The notes beneath the pieces are model-generated. The model was not told where the DNA came from, made no database searches, and was given only the letters and a program-made list of their open reading frames with translations. From IMG/VR virus record IMGVR_UViG_3300027229_000184: DNA of 64,000 nucleotides; one strand, 5' to 3'. The DNA is from an uncultured virus (IMG/VR IMGVR_UViG_3300027229_000184) (lineage: Duplodnaviria; Heunggongvirae; Uroviricota; Caudoviricetes). Both the position numbers and the translations under genes were made by a program. Below, in pieces: positions 2,866 through 46,658 of this stretch. The first letter of the stretch is position 1. Each line of letters begins with the position of its first letter.

Positions 2866-3570
2866 ATGATTTACCACAATTTGAAAACAATGTTCATTGA
2901 GATCACAAAGAACGCTTCTGTCTCAGTTAAAAAAACTCTTTCTGGTCAGGATATTATTGTTCCATCTCATGAAACATACGACATGCTAATGTCTATTTCT
3001 AACTTTAATGGTGAAGATATTAGCGATTACTACAAATTCACAATTAGTAGAAATCCATACGACAGATTCTGCTCAGGGTTTGAATACATGCAAGTTGCAA
3101 TGAGATGGCCTCAAAGTTTCGATGAAACTCTAGATTATCTTATTGCATGTGATGCAAGAGCAAATGGTGAACCAATTTCAGTCCTTGACTCTAACGGTGA
3201 TCCAATCGCTGAAAAATCAGAAAGAGCATTAGACGGCCAGCTACAATACTGGTGGGATGATGCTCCTATTCTAGTGTGGCCACAGGTCGGTTTCATTAAG
3301 AGTGAAGGTTTGAATGGTGCTATTGCTATCACGAATAACTTCAAACTTGAAGAAATTGATCAACAGTGGCCAACTATCGCCGCAGCAATTGCAGCTAAGT
3401 CCGGCGTTAGCTTACCAAACGAGTTGCCTGTTACTAACTCTCTTCCTGACAGACCAGATTGGAAAACGTACTTTGAAGGTGAATTAGGTCAAACTAGAAT
3501 GTCAAAAATTCAACAGCTTTATGCTGATGATTTCGCAACATTCGGTTACAGCACTGAAATCACTTTCTAA
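2866..3570 (+). CDS. Sulfotransferase family 2-like protein
   Basis: FIEITKNASVS (5'-PSB-like), SRNPYDRFCSGF, C-terminal LYADDFATFGY. Confidence 0.75.
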   Translation: MIYHNLKTMFIEITKNASVSVKKTLSGQDIIVPSHETYDMLMSISNFNGEDISDYYKFTISRNPYDRFCSGFEYMQVAMRWPQSFDETLDYLIACDARANGEPISVLDSNGDPIAEKSERALDGQLQYWWDDAPILVWPQVGFIKSEGLNGAIAITNNFKLEEIDQQWPTIAAAIAAKSGVSLPNELPVTNSLPDRPDWKTYFEGELGQTRMSKIQQLYADDFATFGYSTEITF

Positions 3571-3589
3571 TCTTTAACTTTTTTAAAAG

Positions 3590-3617
3590 AAAAGCCCGCT
3601 GAAAAGCGGGCTTTTTT
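3590..3617 (+). terminator. Rho-independent terminator
   Basis: aaaagcccgc-tgaaaa-gcgggctttttt. Confidence 0.9.
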
Positions 3618-3673
3618 ACTATTATAAGGTTGGGCGTGTGATATATATGATATAAAAATATCTCACCACTTAA

Positions 3674-5878
3674 ATGGCAAATAGAATTAAAAAAAATGTT
3701 GGCATTGATGCAAATGCATCAAACGTTGGAGGATGGTCAATCGCCTCAAAAGAAGGTATGGGTCCTTCATCTTCAACGGGATTCTTCAACGGTTTACAAA
3801 TTCCTACAGGAGGTTATGCACTTTATTCTAGTAACATTGATGCTAGAATTGCATCAAACGATGATGAATTAATTGAAATCCTAAATAAAATGGGAGCTTC
3901 AATCGCAGTTGACGATTTAGCTCGAGGGTTAGAATGGGCTAAAAACAATGATGTTCTAATCATTAATAGTAACTACTCAAATGTGGTCACCGATGGATTG
4001 ATTATGAACGTTGAATCTAAACACAATGAAGGCTATTATTATCAAGTTCCAACCACTAATCTTCTTTCTTCAGGTGATCCAAATTCTAATATTGCGTGGA
4101 CTAACAGCGGTGAATGGACGATTAATAACAATGCAACCGATATTGAAAAACCATTTACAAATCATGGTGGACCATCAAACGTATTGACAATTTTGAGAGG
4201 TCAGAGTGTGACAACCGGTAGTCAGCATTGGGGTTGTGCAGGTTTTAGCGGCTTGCCTTCAACAACGTACACTATTTCAGTTTGGTTTAGACAGTCAAGA
4301 GCTGGTTCAAACCAACCTTACTTTAGAACCAACGTTAATAACAATTCTTTAGGTAATTTTAATTGGAATGGAGACACTAATGCTGCAAACTGGCCCGTTA
4401 ATCAATGGATCAGAATTTCATGTACTGCAACTCTTCAATCTAACGAAACTGGAGCGTATTTGAGTAACTATATCGGAGGAGAAGCTAGAGATATTGTTTG
4501 GTACTATGCACCTATGGTTGAATTAGGAAGTATTATGTCGCCGTTTGTGCACGGTTCTAGATCAGAGAATAACACTTGGATTGATTTAACTGGAAATGGA
4601 AACCATGCTTATAAAGGTCAAGGAGAATGGAATGCAGCTAAAAGATATTGGGATTCAAAATTTGATCCAGCATATTATGGTGGTAAAGACAGATTGCAAT
4701 TTAATGTTTCTCACTCAGCTTCTTTGAATGATGCTATGGCCAAAACATCAGGTGGTTGGGTAATTGAAGAACTTGTTAGAATCGACGATAACACATATCC
4801 AGAAGCTGCAGCAGGTGCTGTTATTTCAGGTGGTTATGGATCTGGGTCAATCGGCTTTGATTGGAACCATGGTGTATATAACACCGCAATTAGAATGGGT
4901 CTAGCAGATGGCTCACTGTCAAATTACACAATTGACGCTTCATGGCCCCTGCCTTCTAAGTTTCAAACTCTTGGAAAATGGTATCGTAGAAGCTTTTTCT
5001 GGAATAGAGATAATAATACAATGGGTGTCTATTACAATGGTGAATTGATTGGAACTACGGACATTTCATTAACAGCTGGTAAAATATTATATGATGGTGG
5101 AGGCATTTCATTCGGTGAAATGTACGGATGGTGTCACGATGGAGCTAGAGCAGAAATAAAATTGTACAATAGAATTCTTTCTCAAGAAGAAGTTTCTCAA
5201 AACGTGCATGGCGGTCCTATTGTAACAAATGGTTTAACATTCGCAGCTGATGCAGGTAATTTAATATGTTATGAAAGCGGATCTACTTCTATGTACTCAT
5301 TAGCAGATTCTCTTGAAGGAACTTTGGTAAATGGCACAGGATGGAATAGTTCAAATGGTGGTTTTTGGGAATTTGATAATTCGAATGATAAAATTATTAT
5401 TCCAAATAACGCAGCATTTAATCATACTTCACAATTAACTATAGAATCATGGGTAAGGTTTGATGGTAACAGCGATGATTTTATATTTGAAAAAGGTGAT
5501 GTAAATACCCAGTATAGTTTGTTTAGCCATGGTACAGATATAGTATTTAGAACTTACCACGCAGGTGATGGCGGATATGATACATTTGCTCCTAATAAAA
5601 CCGAAGTTGGCATTGTTAATGGTCAGTGGCACCACATTGTGGGTTCTTGGGATGGTTCAACAAAGCGAATTTACGTTGATGGAGTTGAGAGACGTAGCAA
5701 ATCTAAAAGTGGAGCTCTTGTTACAACTTCTAAAGGGGCTGCTATTGGAGCATTTGGCGGTGATACATCAGGGTATTATTTTGGTGGAGATATTGCTATA
5801 GTAAGAATTTACAATAAAGGTTTATCTACTAGTGAAGTTCTTCAAAACTATAATGCACATGTAACAAGATTCAAATAA
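3674..5878 (+). CDS. Virion protein with carbohydrate-binding-like and two LamG/concanavalin A-like domains
   Basis: WHHIVGSWDG...IYVDG...IG...GDIAIVRIYNKGLSTSEVLQNYNA; a second LamG-like copy precedes it. Confidence 0.85.
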   Translation: MANRIKKNVGIDANASNVGGWSIASKEGMGPSSSTGFFNGLQIPTGGYALYSSNIDARIASNDDELIEILNKMGASIAVDDLARGLEWAKNNDVLIINSNYSNVVTDGLIMNVESKHNEGYYYQVPTTNLLSSGDPNSNIAWTNSGEWTINNNATDIEKPFTNHGGPSNVLTILRGQSVTTGSQHWGCAGFSGLPSTTYTISVWFRQSRAGSNQPYFRTNVNNNSLGNFNWNGDTNAANWPVNQWIRISCTATLQSNETGAYLSNYIGGEARDIVWYYAPMVELGSIMSPFVHGSRSENNTWIDLTGNGNHAYKGQGEWNAAKRYWDSKFDPAYYGGKDRLQFNVSHSASLNDAMAKTSGGWVIEELVRIDDNTYPEAAAGAVISGGYGSGSIGFDWNHGVYNTAIRMGLADGSLSNYTIDASWPLPSKFQTLGKWYRRSFFWNRDNNTMGVYYNGELIGTTDISLTAGKILYDGGGISFGEMYGWCHDGARAEIKLYNRILSQEEVSQNVHGGPIVTNGLTFAADAGNLICYESGSTSMYSLADSLEGTLVNGTGWNSSNGGFWEFDNSNDKIIIPNNAAFNHTSQLTIESWVRFDGNSDDFIFEKGDVNTQYSLFSHGTDIVFRTYHAGDGGYDTFAPNKTEVGIVNGQWHHIVGSWDGSTKRIYVDGVERRSKSKSGALVTTSKGAAIGAFGGDTSGYYFGGDIAIVRIYNKGLSTSEVLQNYNAHVTRFK

Positions 5879-25744: not shown

Positions 25745-25747
25745 ATA

Positions 25748-25976
25748 ATTAACACTGATCCATCGCTCGAAAGAGAGGAAACTCGGGACATCACTGCTTA
25801 AGGTGGAAGGTTATAACCTTTCCAAAACTAGTAAAAAAACAGAGTTTTGGAAAGGTTATAACCGTTATACCACCGAGGATGCAACACGTAATAGTCCATA
25901 GGGGTGAGCAGCCTGGGCAAGGTAGTGGCTTAGATTAATGGTGGAATAAAACAGAATCCCGGTTACTAGTGTTAAT
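25748..25976 (+). ncRNA. rnpB: Minimal RNase P RNA (type A catalytic domain, reduced S domain)
   Basis: CR-I gaggaaactcggga, CR-V aacagaatcccggtta (P4); P1, P2, P3, P5, P6, P7, P15, P16 pairings; CR-IV-like tagattaatg. Confidence 0.85.
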
Positions 25977-25982
25977 GTAAAT

Positions 25983-40603: not shown

Positions 40604-41008
40604 ATGGAAATTATGTTTATTATTACAATGATTTGCGCTGCCCTTGTCGCCTTATTGGCCGCTAAGATGCACAGTAAAATCGAAGCACTCGACGAAGCCC
40701 TTGAGGTTTTGGAAGATCTTCAAGATCATGTTCTAGAGCTTGAAGCAATCTCTATAACTCTTGAAGGACAGATGGAAGCGTGTAATGCAGATCGAAAAAA
40801 TTCATCAAAAGATGAAGAACTGTCTAAACACGTTGATTCGCTTGAAAAGAATGTGATTGCTAACATTCAGGAATTAAGCGATTTGCGAGCGATGATGGCT
40901 AATCTAAACCAAAACATCGCCGAGGTAGCTGCATTTGCAGATCGAGTTAGTGGAAAGGTGGATCAAATTCAAAATCAAATCAACGATGACCGGCCAGAAT
41001 CGTTCTAA
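40604..41008 (+). CDS. TM-anchored coiled-coil protein
   Basis: N-terminal TM followed by heptads. Confidence 0.7.
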   Translation: MEIMFIITMICAALVALLAAKMHSKIEALDEALEVLEDLQDHVLELEAISITLEGQMEACNADRKNSSKDEELSKHVDSLEKNVIANIQELSDLRAMMANLNQNIAEVAAFADRVSGKVDQIQNQINDDRPESF

Positions 41009-41438
41009 CGCAGATAAGTTTCTTCATGTGTTTCGTCGTCGAACCCAGTATTGGGGTTTGAAGGTGGCCAAGATGGTCAATCCAGAGAAATTGTATACTG
41101 AAAGAAACACAGATTACTACAGAGAAACATTTGGAATCTGTCATAAATTAATTTCAAATCCATTATCAACTCTATTAATGTCCCCTATTTCGGGTAAACG
41201 ATACATTAAGAGCGAAGATAATCAAATCTTTATTGTTATCAATAAAGACACCATTGACATTATCAATCACACCTACAGCTATAACATTAAAGTTAACGGT
41301 ACTAATCTATTTGATAAAATCACTAGGGTTTTTGACAATGAAGTTGAGCGTCGTCGAGAGGAGATGGAAGCTGAAATCAAGAATAACGTTGAGCACTCAT
41401 TAAAGTCAATCTATAATAATTTGGTCAATGAAAGGTAA
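40986..41438 (+). CDS. Hypothetical protein
   Basis: ORF; start uncertain. Confidence 0.65.
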   Translation: MTGQNRSNADKFLHVFRRRTQYWGLKVAKMVNPEKLYTERNTDYYRETFGICHKLISNPLSTLLMSPISGKRYIKSEDNQIFIVINKDTIDIINHTYSYNIKVNGTNLFDKITRVFDNEVERRREEMEAEIKNNVEHSLKSIYNNLVNER

Positions 41439-41715: not shown

Positions 41716-41770
41716 AAAGGTTGAAACTTTTCGGCATAATTAAATATAATTACTCTAAATACACATTAAA

Positions 41771-41953
41771 ATGGATATGGATATTTTTAATCAACTAAAA
41801 GAAGTGATTGATTCAGTAGAAGCTGATGCGATCAAGTTTTACGACAAAAAGAATAAGGCAGCTGGAACTCGTGTTCGCAAGGCCATGCAAGACCTTAAAA
41901 AGATCGCTCAGGATGTTCGTTTGGACATCTCTGAAAAGTCTAAAGCTGAGTAA
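41771..41953 (+). CDS. Hc1/histone H1-like small protein (Bacteroidota type)
   Basis: KFY.K.NKAAGTRVRKAMQDLK..AQDVR. Confidence 0.85.
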   Translation: MDMDIFNQLKEVIDSVEADAIKFYDKKNKAAGTRVRKAMQDLKKIAQDVRLDISEKSKAE

Positions 41954-41962
41954 TCAGCTTCT

Positions 41963-42036
41963 GGTGCGGTAGTTCAGTTGGTCAGAATATCGGCCTGTCA
42001 CGCCGAGGGTCGCGGGTTCAAGTCCCGTCCGCACCG
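41963..42036 (+). tRNA. tRNA-Asp(GTC)
   Basis: tcggc-ctGTCac-gccga. Confidence 0.94.
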
Positions 42037-42040
42037 CAAT

Positions 42041-42235
42041 GGGTTCGTTGGACGCCCTAAGTTCAACGGTTAAAAATAGGACCGCCCCTCCCACGATACT
42101 AGTGTGGGATAAGGCCGGGTAAATGACGGAAAATGGCTGGAAGTCGACCTCTGCGGAACCCTACCGCATGCCACCGTCCCCCCACCGCATGCTGTAAAGA
42201 GCGGTTAGAGCACAGTAGGTGCCGACGGCGGTCCT
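42041..42235 (+). ncRNA. Unidentified GC-rich multi-stem, pseudoknotted RNA
   Basis: aggaccgcc/ggcggtcct plus at least five internal helices, ending in a T run. Confidence 0.7.
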
Positions 42236-42289
42236 TCTTTTTTACTTTGAAACTTTTTGTGGATCTAGTGTATAATCTATAGTTAACTT

Positions 42290-42760
42290 ATGACTATGGT
42301 AAAATATACAAATCGTTACAACGACGTCCACACCTTCACCAAGGTAGATGAAACCAAAATTCTGTGGCAAGGCAACTTTGATCACAGTCGATTCAGTTGG
42401 CCTAATGTTTATAAAGAGGCTTACGAACAATACCGCAAAGATGGCGGTGATCTTCATATTGAGGACTTTAAGAAGGAAGTACACCACTATGACAATGTCA
42501 CATTTGAATTTTCTGAAATCTCTAAGAAGTACCGATCACTAGTCTATTCAGATACAAAAACCATCAGTATGGTTGATCCATCTGGCGGTCCTTATGTTAC
42601 TGCTGGCATGGACATGAAGTACTTTGGCGAAGAATTAAAGGGTTTGATCGTTCGATCTTTTACCCCAGCCGAAGAAGGTTATATCGTTAATGTTTATAAC
42701 GAGTTTGACCACCTAGCTGACACCGAAATCATCGGTGGAATTATCAATACCTCAAAATAA
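42290..42760 (+). CDS. Hypothetical phage protein
   Basis: NRY.D..TF...MVDPSGGPY. Confidence 0.7.
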   Translation: MTMVKYTNRYNDVHTFTKVDETKILWQGNFDHSRFSWPNVYKEAYEQYRKDGGDLHIEDFKKEVHHYDNVTFEFSEISKKYRSLVYSDTKTISMVDPSGGPYVTAGMDMKYFGEELKGLIVRSFTPAEEGYIVNVYNEFDHLADTEIIGGIINTSK

Positions 42761-43224
42761 TGAAGAACTACATTCTCACCCTCATGGCTTTTATGGCTGT
42801 GAACTTTGCAGGGCTTTGGCTCGGTGGTCTTGCAACAGGCCCTGGTGTAACTAGCGACTGGTACACTTCTTTGAATCAAGCGCCTTGGACTCCACCGGGT
42901 TGGGTCTTTGGCTTGGCTTGGACCATTATTGGTGTAACGTTCTCAGTCTTTATGGCCAATGAATGGAGAGATGAAGAGAATCCTCTTCCTTATGCCCTTT
43001 TTCCTGAAGCTCTGCTACTAAACATCTTTTGGAATTACGTGTTCTTTGGCCAACATGTGCTCGGTGCAGCAATCATGATTTCAATACTATCGATCATTAT
43101 TTTTGTAATGGCACACTTTACACGAATCATCAACGGTTGGGGTCGAATGATCTGGATCATGCCGTATCTAATTTGGTTGATGATCGCATCTTCTCTTAAC
43201 TGGTATATTGTAATCATGAACTAA
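42760..43224 (+). CDS. tspO: TspO/MBR family protein
   Basis: WY.SL..APWTPPGWVFG.AW...PYL.WL..A..LN. Confidence 0.9.
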   Translation: MKNYILTLMAFMAVNFAGLWLGGLATGPGVTSDWYTSLNQAPWTPPGWVFGLAWTIIGVTFSVFMANEWRDEENPLPYALFPEALLLNIFWNYVFFGQHVLGAAIMISILSIIIFVMAHFTRIINGWGRMIWIMPYLIWLMIASSLNWYIVIMN

Positions 43225-43666: not shown

Positions 43667-44592
43667 AAAAGATTTTACTAGCCCTTTTATTAGCAGTAAA
43701 TAGTACTGCTTTTGCGTCACACATCTTAGGTGGAATGTTGGCCATGACTCATGATCCAACTTCTCAACCTAACAATCAGTCAGTTGCTCTATATCTTATT
43801 ACGGACCCGCAGGGAATCTTACCCGCAAGCCAAACAGTCGCAGTTTATATTGAGAACAATAGCTTCTATCTGTTCTCAGAGAACGTAACAGTCACTCTAA
43901 CAAGTACTGACACAATGGCGGATGGTAATCTATTGTCAACCTACGTCAGTGGATACAAGCAGTTTTACATGAGTAAGTACCGCTTCATCTATTCACATTG
44001 TTGCCGAGGCATGACTGTTAATGCATCAAATTCTTTTACTAGTGATTTCTTGATTGCTCTTGATGTTGATCGTTTGAATGCAGTGAATAATAACACTCCG
44101 ATGCCAAACTATCTACCAACATGTAGGATGCCACAGAACTTTACCAGTGTGATTGACTTAAAAGCTTTGATCAACGATAACCTGTTTGAGAATGATTCTA
44201 TTCAATATGAAATGTGGGATGCTTTAGGTCAACATGCAAACAACACCTTTGTGCCATTAGCGCCATTCAACCAATTAACAAGTTATGGTATTTACACAAT
44301 GGGTGGTGGTATGATTAATTGGACACCATCAACCGTTGGTAACTTTGTTACAGGTTATAAACTAACAGAATGGAGAAGTGGTGGTATTAAAGCATCACAG
44401 TGCTACGTTCAAATGACGTACACCATCACACCTTCTTCAATTGGTATTACTGAGTTTGAAAGAGAAAAGAAGGTTCTAGGCGTTTATGATATGCTTGGAC
44501 GTTATATTCAAAAGGATATGGAATATCTTCCATCTGGGCAACTATATTTGGTTGAATATAACACTGGATTTGAAAAAATCTTTGTCCAGTGA
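43663..44592 (+). CDS. Secreted protein with truncated T9SS type-A-like C-terminal tail
   Basis: Signal peptide, ASHILGG, CCR, C-terminal YDMLGR...GQLYLV...KI. Confidence 0.7.
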   Translation: MKKILLALLLAVNSTAFASHILGGMLAMTHDPTSQPNNQSVALYLITDPQGILPASQTVAVYIENNSFYLFSENVTVTLTSTDTMADGNLLSTYVSGYKQFYMSKYRFIYSHCCRGMTVNASNSFTSDFLIALDVDRLNAVNNNTPMPNYLPTCRMPQNFTSVIDLKALINDNLFENDSIQYEMWDALGQHANNTFVPLAPFNQLTSYGIYTMGGGMINWTPSTVGNFVTGYKLTEWRSGGIKASQCYVQMTYTITPSSIGITEFEREKKVLGVYDMLGRYIQKDMEYLPSGQLYLVEYNTGFEKIFVQ

Positions 44593-44597
44593 TAAGT

Positions 44598-46658
44598 ATG
44601 AAAAAGTTCTTATTGGGTCTCTTTATGATCCTCGGTCTAATGACCCAAGCAAGTCACCTTTCAGGCGGTGACATTCAATACCGCTATATTGGCGATTCAA
44701 CTGGCGTGGCCAGACAGTACAAGGTAATCCTGCGAGTTTATAGAGATGTCACAGGAATCGGCATGCCTACGACCGAAACGGTTACAGTTTCATCAAACTG
44801 TTATGCAAACATTAACGTTCCTATGACTCTACAAGCGGGTTCAGGATTGGTTGCTCCAACATTGTTTGATTGTGTAACAGTAGGTAGCGCTGGAACCAAA
44901 ACACTTGAAATTTATACTTATAAAGGGTATGTAACACTACCAGGTGCTTGTTCCACATTTAAGTTTTGGTACTCTAATTGCTGTAGACCAGGTGGTATAA
45001 CAAACATTAATACCTCAAATGGATTTGGTAATGATGGCTTTTTCTTCGATGCAAACCTAGATAACATGTTAGGTGAGAATTCTTCACCAATCTTTATATC
45101 TGAACCTGTTCGTGCATTTTGTGTGGGTAATGCATTTAATTGGGCACAGAAGAGCGTTGAGTATGATGGCGACAGCGTTCATTATGAAATGATAAACTGT
45201 AGAGAGAATGCGTATCCTAATCAAACTAACATTCCATTTGATGCAGGTTGGTCAGCAACTCAGCCAGTAACTTCAACCTATTTTAATCTGAATCCAAAGA
45301 CTGGAACCATTTCATTCTTGCCAACTCAGCAAGAGATTGATGTGATGAGCATTAAGATTACTGAATACAGGTATGATTCACTCTATTATATCTGGTATCA
45401 AGTCGGTTCAGCGTCAAGAGATATGATGATCTCTATTTCAGCTAACTGTTCACCGGCAGCATCTCAAGGCGTAGTGTTGGATTACAACTATCCAGGACAA
45501 TACATTGATTCAGTTACGATGTTACCTGCGATTGATTATGATTGTGGAGATTCAGTGATTGATTTGAACTTCTTGGTTAAATTAGATTGTGAATCTATTT
45601 CAGAGGATGGAACTGATTTCCGATTAACTAATCCATTGGGTCAACCAATTCCAATCAGTAAACTTTCTGCAACATGTGATGTGAACGGCGAAACTCAAGC
45701 CATTCGAGTTCATCTATTCAAACCATTGTTGGTAAATGGCAGATACTTCCTCTATTCAAAGACCGGTAACGATGGAAACACCCTAACCAATAAGTGTGGA
45801 TTCCCAATGAACGAGTTCGACACGTTGGTTATCATTGTAGATGATTGTTTTGAACCAGTGTGGGATTTTAAGAATGTGAGCGTGGTAAATGATAACCACA
45901 CTACTCTACAATGGACAAGAGATTCTACATCATTCGATACAACATATTTTGACGGATACGGTATTTGGAGATGGGATGGAACTCAGTATCAATTCCGCCA
46001 GTTGGTTACTAATTGGAAGAAAAAGCACTACGATGATCTAACTGCCACTAATGTTGGCAATCAAACATATTCGTATAAGATTGACTTTAGATACAGTGGA
46101 TTTACATTCGGACCTTCAGATTCAATTCATTCTATTTGGCTAAGAGGTAGCGGTGAATGTGATTCATTGTATTTGATTTGGAATCAATACAACGGTTGGC
46201 CAACTCCACAATATGATGTTTACATAAACTATCAAAACCAGTGGATCAAGTGGAACGATATTGCAATCACCGACACAACATACTGCATGAAATCCGATAC
46301 TTTGGAGGTGGGCAATTATGATGTGAAAGTTGTTACCACAAATGGAGGATACACTTCAGAGAGTAACTATGTCAGATGTGTTCAACCCGAACCTCCTTAT
46401 GTCGTAATTCCTAACGTCATTACTCCAAACGGAGATGGTATAAATGATATGCTTACAATTCAAAATCTAATGAATTGGGACAATAGAGCATTAACCATCT
46501 TTAATCGATGGGGAGGTATTGTCTTCAAGACTGAGGACTATCGAAACGACTGGAACGGTAGTGGAGTATCAGATGGAGTGTATTTTGGAGTTCTAGTAAT
46601 ATCCGACAGTGGAAGATTAGAAACATACAACTTCATAGTAACCGTTCTGAGCGAATAG
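44598..46658 (+). CDS. Secreted protein with gliding-motility-associated (T9SS type B) C-terminal domain
   Basis: ASHLSGGDI.YRY, CCR, C-terminal IPNVITPNGDGIND...IFNRWG...WNG...DGVYF. Confidence 0.88.
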   Translation: MKKFLLGLFMILGLMTQASHLSGGDIQYRYIGDSTGVARQYKVILRVYRDVTGIGMPTTETVTVSSNCYANINVPMTLQAGSGLVAPTLFDCVTVGSAGTKTLEIYTYKGYVTLPGACSTFKFWYSNCCRPGGITNINTSNGFGNDGFFFDANLDNMLGENSSPIFISEPVRAFCVGNAFNWAQKSVEYDGDSVHYEMINCRENAYPNQTNIPFDAGWSATQPVTSTYFNLNPKTGTISFLPTQQEIDVMSIKITEYRYDSLYYIWYQVGSASRDMMISISANCSPAASQGVVLDYNYPGQYIDSVTMLPAIDYDCGDSVIDLNFLVKLDCESISEDGTDFRLTNPLGQPIPISKLSATCDVNGETQAIRVHLFKPLLVNGRYFLYSKTGNDGNTLTNKCGFPMNEFDTLVIIVDDCFEPVWDFKNVSVVNDNHTTLQWTRDSTSFDTTYFDGYGIWRWDGTQYQFRQLVTNWKKKHYDDLTATNVGNQTYSYKIDFRYSGFTFGPSDSIHSIWLRGSGECDSLYLIWNQYNGWPTPQYDVYINYQNQWIKWNDIAITDTTYCMKSDTLEVGNYDVKVVTTNGGYTSESNYVRCVQPEPPYVVIPNVITPNGDGINDMLTIQNLMNWDNRALTIFNRWGGIVFKTEDYRNDWNGSGVSDGVYFGVLVISDSGRLETYNFIVTVLSE

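Follow-up and report, generated by a model that had tools for sequence, protein, structure and literature searches.

The window, by which we mean the whole stretch of 64,000 nt that was analysed, belongs to a 170,561-nt virus contig with an estimated completeness of 70%, and all positions below are window coordinates unless another record is named. From our own reading of its open reading frames, the contig carries what we take to be a T4-like gene set. The best named relatives of the capsid protein are the Lak Prevotella megaphages and Tenacibaculum phage PTm1, and a phage gene at 44589-46658, with a TspO gene (42760-43224) adjacent, encodes a protein of 689 aa that carries a type IX secretion signal domain (PF13585, E 8e-20). 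Given these capsid relatives and the nearby type IX secretion signal gene, the host of this T4-like jumbo phage is likely a member of the Bacteroidota.

The element under study, at 42041-42235, lies in a local unit in which a promoter, the Hc1 gene, tRNA-Asp, the RNA, a U tract and the next promoter follow one another:

41721-41750, + strand: phage promoter of the GAAAC, 16-18 nt, TATAA class, with an 11/12 match to the consensus
41771-41953, + strand: gene for the histone H1-like protein Hc1, first in the unit (PF07432, E 9e-23)
41963-42036, + strand: tRNA-Asp(GUC), with no encoded CCA
42238-42243, + strand: U tract, from its sequence the likely 3' end of the RNA, present also in a related record (L232) and in the distant clade described below
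42247-42276, + strand: promoter of the next gene, forming the downstream border

The promoter motif is strongly biased towards the coding strand, with 25 occurrences to 1 on the other in the window's genome (G000) and 24 to 0 in G025, and the copy at 41721-41750 most likely drives Hc1, tRNA-Asp and the RNA together. A preliminary description of the element, made from the letters of the DNA, had held it to be GC-rich, without a credible reading frame and ended by a U tract, and these points are borne out. The GC content is 0.59 over 42000-42199, compared with 0.31-0.42 in most neighbouring intervals and 0.40 in the genome; no reading frame of at least 50 aa overlaps the element, its frames stopping early; and the U tract is found at 42238-42243, where no classic terminator was called.

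Fold of the RNA and its conservation

The folding energy of the RNA is no better than chance (z of -1.19 for the element against shuffles, -1.92 for the core and -0.64 for a distant homologue), and because it fails to beat the shuffles, the many short pairings needed the support of homologues. The model drawn at a time when the distant clade had yet to come to light supplied 35 nested pairs. Of these, 17 show two-sided changes, one a one-sided change, 16 are invariant and one is broken, these counts coming from four distinct sequences of two clades, in effect one deep comparison, in an alignment fitted to the model. Pairing cells are 98.6% in register, compared with 34-46% in slid registers, and RNAalifold independently recovered P1, P2, the outer P3 helix, P4 and P5, with another partner for 42135-37. 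Judged by sequence comparison, the element is a real structured RNA gene of about 196 nt, and its nested fold, consisting of a closing helix, a hairpin, a long arm and a GNRA-capped hairpin, is shown at the level of covariation. The parts of the RNA are as follows:

42041-42068, + strand: 5' H-type pseudoknot (42041-44/42054-57 and 42046-53/42061-68), a peripheral variable domain
42069-42077, + strand: A-rich linker, single-stranded as read from the sequence, not conserved in the distant clade
42078-42235, + strand: conserved core closed by helix P1 (42078-86/42227-35), with two-sided changes, as counted by the program, in six of nine pairs and none broken
42089-42109, + strand: hairpin P2, with two-sided changes in three of six pairs and one broken
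42113-42126, + strand: junction with GGCCG (42113-17) and AAUGA (42122-26), invariant in 4/4 distinct sequences; a metatranscriptome variant has A at 42113
42117-42183, + strand: long arm P3, made of 42117-19/42181-83, 42125-29/42174-78 and 42135-37/42170-72, with two-sided changes in 1/3, 2/5 and 1/3 pairs and none broken
42142-42152, + strand: invariant strand AGUCGACCUCU, the longest invariant run and proposed knot partner of 42217-25
42152-42168, + strand: hairpin P4 with a variable loop, with two-sided changes in two of five pairs
42184-42205, + strand: hairpin P5 with a conserved 12-nt loop and a GNRA tetraloop (42194-97) on two pairs; three of five stem pairs show two-sided changes
42215-42226, + strand: conserved 3' strand closing the proposed double knot, with invariant runs at 42215-17 and 42219-22

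Closer relatives add further substitutions that keep the pairing. In L232, a G-C pair of P1 becomes A-U, and the 5' knot changes from U-G to U-A in one stem and from G-U to G-C in the other. The metatranscriptome variant, read by hand, carries a U-A to G-C change at 42089/42109 in P2, a C-G to U-A change in P1, a new A-U pair that lengthens P3 and a U-A to U-G change beneath the GNRA loop. This tetraloop is GUAA in the window and GUGA in the distant clade, whose 5' domain is larger and unalignable and can, by eye, form an H-type knot.

All strings listed in the preliminary description lie where it placed them, and its drawing can be compared with these data pair by pair. The closing helix and the helices tcccac/gtggga, tgcgg/ccgca and accgc/gcggt are kept with compensatory changes, as is gacgg/ccgtc, which had been drawn as a cross-pairing and becomes a nested long-range helix because ggccg/tggct has to be dropped. 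The latter is broken at two of five pairs in the distant clade, and 42113 and 42138 are both A in the metatranscriptome variant. The composite helix gtcg-acct/aggt-gc-cgac mostly persists, with 6/8 pairs in the distant clade, in letters that are near-invariant. The proposed tgct/agca did not survive, being broken at 2/4 pairs in the distant clade and 1/4 in L232, in a 3' stretch of uncertain alignment, and aaccc/gggt falls outside the pair counts, as its loop is gapped in the alignment. The 5' hairpin cgttggac/gttcaacg does pair, as one half of the H-type pseudoknot; the other half (42041-44/42054-57), the helix 42135-37/42170-72 and the GNRA loop at 42194-97 were absent from the earlier drawing. 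The overall view of a real non-coding RNA, compact and knotted, that belongs to none of the known families finds support here, its drawn structure holds in part, and the ribozyme-like or scaffold role that it proposed is conjectural. Of the checks named in that description, the comparison with Rfam gave no match, and the homologues do have compensatory changes, so that neither of its refuting outcomes came about.

Helix sequences drift freely in these RNAs, at about 54% core identity, and about 45 letters of junctions and loops are fixed, a combination typical of a tertiary fold; the P5 loop, too, is for the most part fixed across the distinct sequences. The core is probably double-knotted, as its strands suggest: 42144-50 would pair with 42217-25, and 42113-15 with 42221-23, where two or three letters are looped out of the first helix. 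Because they join invariant strands, the surviving knots are compatible with the alignment and not proven by it. The 42144-50/42217-25 pairing has zero two-sided changes, and one of its pairs is C-A in the distant clade. The pair 42113/42223, which reads G-C, G-U and A-U in three lineages (the A-U read by hand), is the sole covariation hint for a knot within the core; 42146 could equally pair with 42223, and many other 3-pair helices fit the four sequences equally well.

Distribution, genomic neighbours and expression

The RNA family is rare among the phage records examined. A covariance model based solely on the window copy detected a distant form in 4/49 other phage records (E about 1e-11), and RNA models place the RNA in 4/154 other phage records, most of them fragments, with one copy per record; it is present in 0/5 IMG/VR records that are at least 90% complete and in 0/9 named records. 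Searches with blastn gave no real match in 50,697 phage records or 72,556 plasmids. Scans of viral contigs with patterns derived solely from the window yielded zero matches, two chance matches, and 105 listed matches of which none is similar, and consensus-pattern scans met the same distant clade only (10/12 matches, then 10/29, where 18 of the other 19 scored as no match). A scan with exact consensus blocks over 185,579 bacterial and archaeal genomes, which divergent copies would escape, returned two matches, both by chance, and a mismatch-tolerant block search over 2.3 Mb of DNA added nothing new. A metagenome pattern scan gave at least four true matches among at least 119 stretches listed; among DNA data sets, the stretch is best represented in marine metagenomes.

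The copies fall into few lineages. L239 agrees with the window letter for letter over 3,023 nt and does not count as an independent copy, and L232, with the same gene order, differs in the RNA at 6/196 letters (97% identical). L264 and L217 represent one near-identical strain of the window's phage with an unchanged RNA, upstream of which lie a different tRNA-Asp allele and then a 209-aa endonuclease-like gene. At 676-1411 of L264, the swapped allele (79% identical) is followed by this cysteine-rich, TnsA-like gene (E 3e-4, below the cut-off), and the L217 copy is frameshifted or misassembled. From its sequence the gene looks like a free-standing homing endonuclease, and it would be aimed at the tRNA gene, since a swapped tRNA-Asp allele accompanies it. 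The distant clade amounts, after the pattern scan, to 10 contigs with two distinct sequences, whose cores are 53-55% identical to that of the window and whose proteins are about 49% identical at the median; its RNA has 0 Rfam matches. The 3.2-kb locus of this clade contains no tRNA, and the RNA is preceded there by a thioesterase gene and by a phage promoter copy of its own, with its U tract about 35 nt before the next gene. It sits in an operon leader, with no second promoter match before the next genes. A variant of the RNA occurs, in addition, in two metatranscriptomes.

The neighbours of the RNA vary: in the distant clade they are the thioesterase gene and an unnamed gene, in the window and L232 tRNA-Asp, and in L264 and L217 the endonuclease gene. 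The preliminary description placed the RNA immediately after tRNA-Asp, and it does start 4 nt past that gene in the window; L264, L217 and the distant clade lack this arrangement, and the tie is not conserved. The downstream genes differ in all three lineages and have their own promoter in two. A gene at 40935-41438, for a 167-aa protein of no family, is common to the window's phage, L232 and the distant clade; it lies upstream of the RNA in three lineages and occurs also in L006-L008 and in G006 and G007, where the RNA was not found. Gene co-occurrence against three genomes without the RNA gave no convincing partner gene.

Two readings bear directly on this context. The distant-clade RNA has a promoter on one side and an operon on the other, with a start codon about 35 nt further on, and its invariant core is pocket-like, as would suit a cis-acting leader or a riboswitch-like aptamer that sets read-through at the U tract. 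We consider this improbable, because in the window and L232 the RNA closes its unit and a separate promoter serves the next gene, the downstream genes differ across the three lineages, and no alternative terminator hairpin was called; a riboswitch would be expected to precede related genes regularly and to include an expression platform, and three different downstream genes were found instead. The patchy occurrence (the 4/154 records above), the different sites in the two clades and the endonuclease-like gene directly upstream in L264 and L217 would, in turn, fit a selfish or mobile RNA which takes up positions behind phage promoters in association with a homing endonuclease or a reverse transcriptase. 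Such an element is hardly to be expected here, as neither the window nor L232 nor the distant clade has the endonuclease, which looks tRNA-targeted, each record has one copy, and no PF00078 match appears in the 4/4 records searched (16-70% complete).

Evidence of expression comes from three RNA runs, considered with one DNA run, all chosen because they hold the stretch and represented by contigs, which carry no level, ends or strand. X19 has a near-identical contig over 42009-42226, which extends from inside tRNA-Asp, and a 185-nt variant contig; X20 has variant contigs of 140 and 106 nt; and X21 (1/3 RNA runs) has zero cover on the RNA. The variant contigs of the two studies (2/3 RNA runs) begin at 42052, cross the 5' domain into the core and include no flanking gene. 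Genes on either side have no RNA cover, which we do not take as evidence of level. Contigs of the RNA alone are a hint of a discrete RNA.

Known RNA families and a possible role

The preliminary description recognised no known family, and the comparison with Rfam agrees with it: there is no match at the gathering score, and at E up to 10 Rfam 15, whose families include GOLLD, ROOL, manA, raiA and OLE as well as ribozymes and riboswitches, returns on 42041-42235 only the tail of a chance match on the tRNA. No description of this RNA was found in the literature covered, where subscription papers were mostly outside the scope, including a search for the invariant strand as a text string. The accessible supplementary tables of a set of 8495 candidate RNAs from DNA viruses (PMC10690425) hold no match, and its larger archives might include the distant clade unnamed. 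This is probably an undescribed family of structured phage RNA.

The closest known systems are the large structured RNAs of phages. According to the accessible part of one report, GOLLD and ROOL are phage-encoded, ornate, multi-knot RNAs often found near tRNA islands (10.1101/2024.12.08.627333). The element is phage-encoded, has RNA contigs in 2/3 runs and adjoins a tRNA in one clade only; at 196 nt it has a third to a quarter of their size of several hundred nt, and GOLLD (RF02032) gives no match at E 1 in 3/3 records. A related phage record, L016, carries a GOLLD RNA (243 bits) at 4079-4509, before tRNA-Met. The manA RNA is found in phages and assembles via kissing loops and GNRA-receptor contacts, as stated in the available portion of its description (10.64898/2026.07.01.735769). 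It is similar in size (RF01745, 192 model positions), but the element has no RF01745 match, and a weak one lies elsewhere in the same genome. That match (25.5 bits, E 5e-4, gathering score 55) falls outside the window, at G000:C1:70630-70925 (L510 1483-1778), on an RNA of about 295 nt with a closed structure, which lies between tRNA-Gly and tRNA-Ala, and two shorter structured spacers lie between tRNA-Thr and tRNA-Gly in the same region. The raiA motif RNA of bacterial species, as far as its accessible account goes (PMC12968392), has about 200 nt, a terminal closing helix and a compact core with two pseudoknots. Measured against that account, the element is alike in size, closing helix and a compact core with two knots, here proposed, and differs in that an internal-loop strand and a junction strand would both pair with the 3' strand; it shows no conserved apical-loop pairing and no match to the Rfam model.

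A further comparison concerns catalytic RNAs. Theta ribozymes, minimal HDV-like ribozymes, are described in the part of the source available as knotted RNAs within 5 nt of phage tRNA 3' ends (PMC10879173), and the element begins 4 nt after tRNA-Asp in the window. It is, however, far larger, and the tRNA adjacency is not conserved. A loose descriptor of the HDV-type fold, a nested double knot with its catalytic C in J4/2, gave one match in the window, where shuffled sequences average 2.4; no match starts at the tRNA end, and none is common to both clades.

The same phage also has an RNase P RNA-like gene of 235 nt at 25747-25981 (+ strand), directly before tRNA-His. Its match to RF00010 reaches 46.2 bits (E 3e-12 to 3e-14), short of the 100 set as gathering score; its P4 knot pairs by hand, with one compensatory swap, its specificity domain is reduced to a long hairpin, and the P18 region is missing. 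It occurs in 1/50 phage records searched, no RnpA gene was found in four records searched, and no report of a phage RNase P RNA was found in the literature. The strand order of the element, with a closing helix, a second helix and a knot stacked on the closing helix, loosely recalls P1, P2 and P4 of RNase P RNA, but the element has no RF00010 signal, whereas the RNase P-like RNA of the genome scores E 3e-14.

These observations bear on the possibility of a ribozyme of a new class, which might for example cut or join RNA in tRNA or transcript processing and use the double-knot core as its active site. As in catalytic cores, the invariant letters are concentrated where two knots are proposed to stack on the closing helix, the RNA has a suitable size, the RNase P RNA-like gene is in the same phage, and among the 18 tRNA ends of this phage an encoded CCA is clear in tRNA-Ala only. 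On the other hand, there is no conserved substrate or junction, the tRNA being absent or displaced in other members; the contigs span the borders between tRNA-Asp and the RNA and between the 5' domain and the core, so that fast self-cleavage there is not suggested; and the HDV-like descriptor gave only chance-level matches, none at the tRNA end. We regard a ribozyme as doubtful, if worth keeping in mind. On the most far-reaching view, the element would be a founding member of a new catalytic RNA class, or a partner of the phage's shortened RNase P RNA, and the phage might have its own tRNA-processing RNA machines, an outcome that we likewise hold to be unlikely.

It is very improbable that the element is derived from a housekeeping RNA, whether from a split tmRNA, of which it would be the message-like half, or from RNase P RNA, in which case it would give the phage's shortened form a specificity domain on a separate molecule. 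The H-type knot at the 5' end and the A-rich spacer after it are reminiscent of PK1 of tmRNA, the RNase P RNA-like gene of this genome has a much reduced specificity domain, and no tmRNA was found in the 70%-complete genome. Against this, neither RF00023 nor RF00010 responds to the element at a threshold as loose as E 10, no reading frame is preserved, the frames stopping early and the spacer not being conserved, and no RNase P RNA is present in 4/4 distant-clade contigs (10-34% complete); ARAGORN finds no tmRNA, and RF00023 matches tRNAs only. Short likenesses to motifs of group I and II introns, of the cobalamin riboswitch and of 16S rRNA were considered and set aside, as they have the wrong order or hold in a single clade.

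Further RNAs and non-coding stretches stand out in other records. In related phages, a permuted tRNA-like RNA lies behind Hc1 in L002 (3667-3794, with a sub-threshold YrlA match of 34.5 bits, E 2e-5) and, in similar form, in L003, L005, L009, L028 and L049. Next to it, at about 3795-3870 of L002, comes another conserved structured RNA, about 75 nt long and GC-rich, which includes a variable hairpin and has no Rfam match in L002; similar RNAs occur in L003, L005, L009, L013, L019, L028, L042 and L049. In L046, a GC-rich non-coding stretch of about 200 nt (about 3465-3720) comes right after tRNA-Gly, with no Rfam gathering match and no match to our model R2.

Our preferred reading, to which we assign a probability of about one half, is by analogy that of a stable, trans-acting, ornate phage RNA that would offer a folded binding or assembly surface like GOLLD, ROOL and manA, being a member of none of them; such a surface is the role suspected for those three RNAs, for which homo-oligomers free of protein are characteristic. 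Free helix sequences, fixed junctions, changing neighbours and a promoter of its own in one clade suggest action in trans through three-dimensional shape, and as the neighbours differ among lineages, there is no common cis target. The RNA is, moreover, 97% identical in L232 while Hc1 and TspO are 68% and 73% identical, and the phage group has other such RNAs (GOLLD in L016 and the manA-like stretch in G000). No reverse-complement match of at least 13 nt exists between the RNA and either phage, which argues against an antisense role, and the loss of the GGCC palindrome in the metatranscriptome variant weakens self-assembly. Other points also count against our reading: the operon-leader position in the distant clade fits a cis role too, the proposed knots join invariant letters, the 167-aa upstream protein of no family, which accompanies the RNA in three lineages, occurs also in G006 and G007, where the RNA was not found, and 1/3 RNA runs, all chosen for the stretch, lacks cover on the RNA.

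As a trans-acting RNA, the element would, from its promoter and U tract, be transcribed from the phage promoter with Hc1 and tRNA-Asp and end at the U tract, and its presence in RNA libraries weakly suggests that it is made. Its 5' end may be freed by tRNA 3'-end processing, and the 5' knot and the closing helix could protect it from exonucleases. It folds, as the covariation shows, into the closing helix, the hairpin, the long arm and the GNRA-capped hairpin, and two knots between invariant strands, with docking of the GNRA loop, might pack a compact core. During infection, this core may hold or decoy a host partner (a protein, a part of the ribosome or a tRNA) or copies of the RNA itself.

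Large knotted RNAs of bacteria and phages have yielded new ribozymes, riboswitches and RNA-only cages. The new RNA is of synthesisable size, has natural variants that mark its key letters and has no Rfam model, and it is therefore directly testable. It also points to a probable Bacteroidota jumbo-phage clade with an unusual stock of RNAs, in which a single genome combines the new RNA with a manA-like RNA and an RNase P RNA-like gene.
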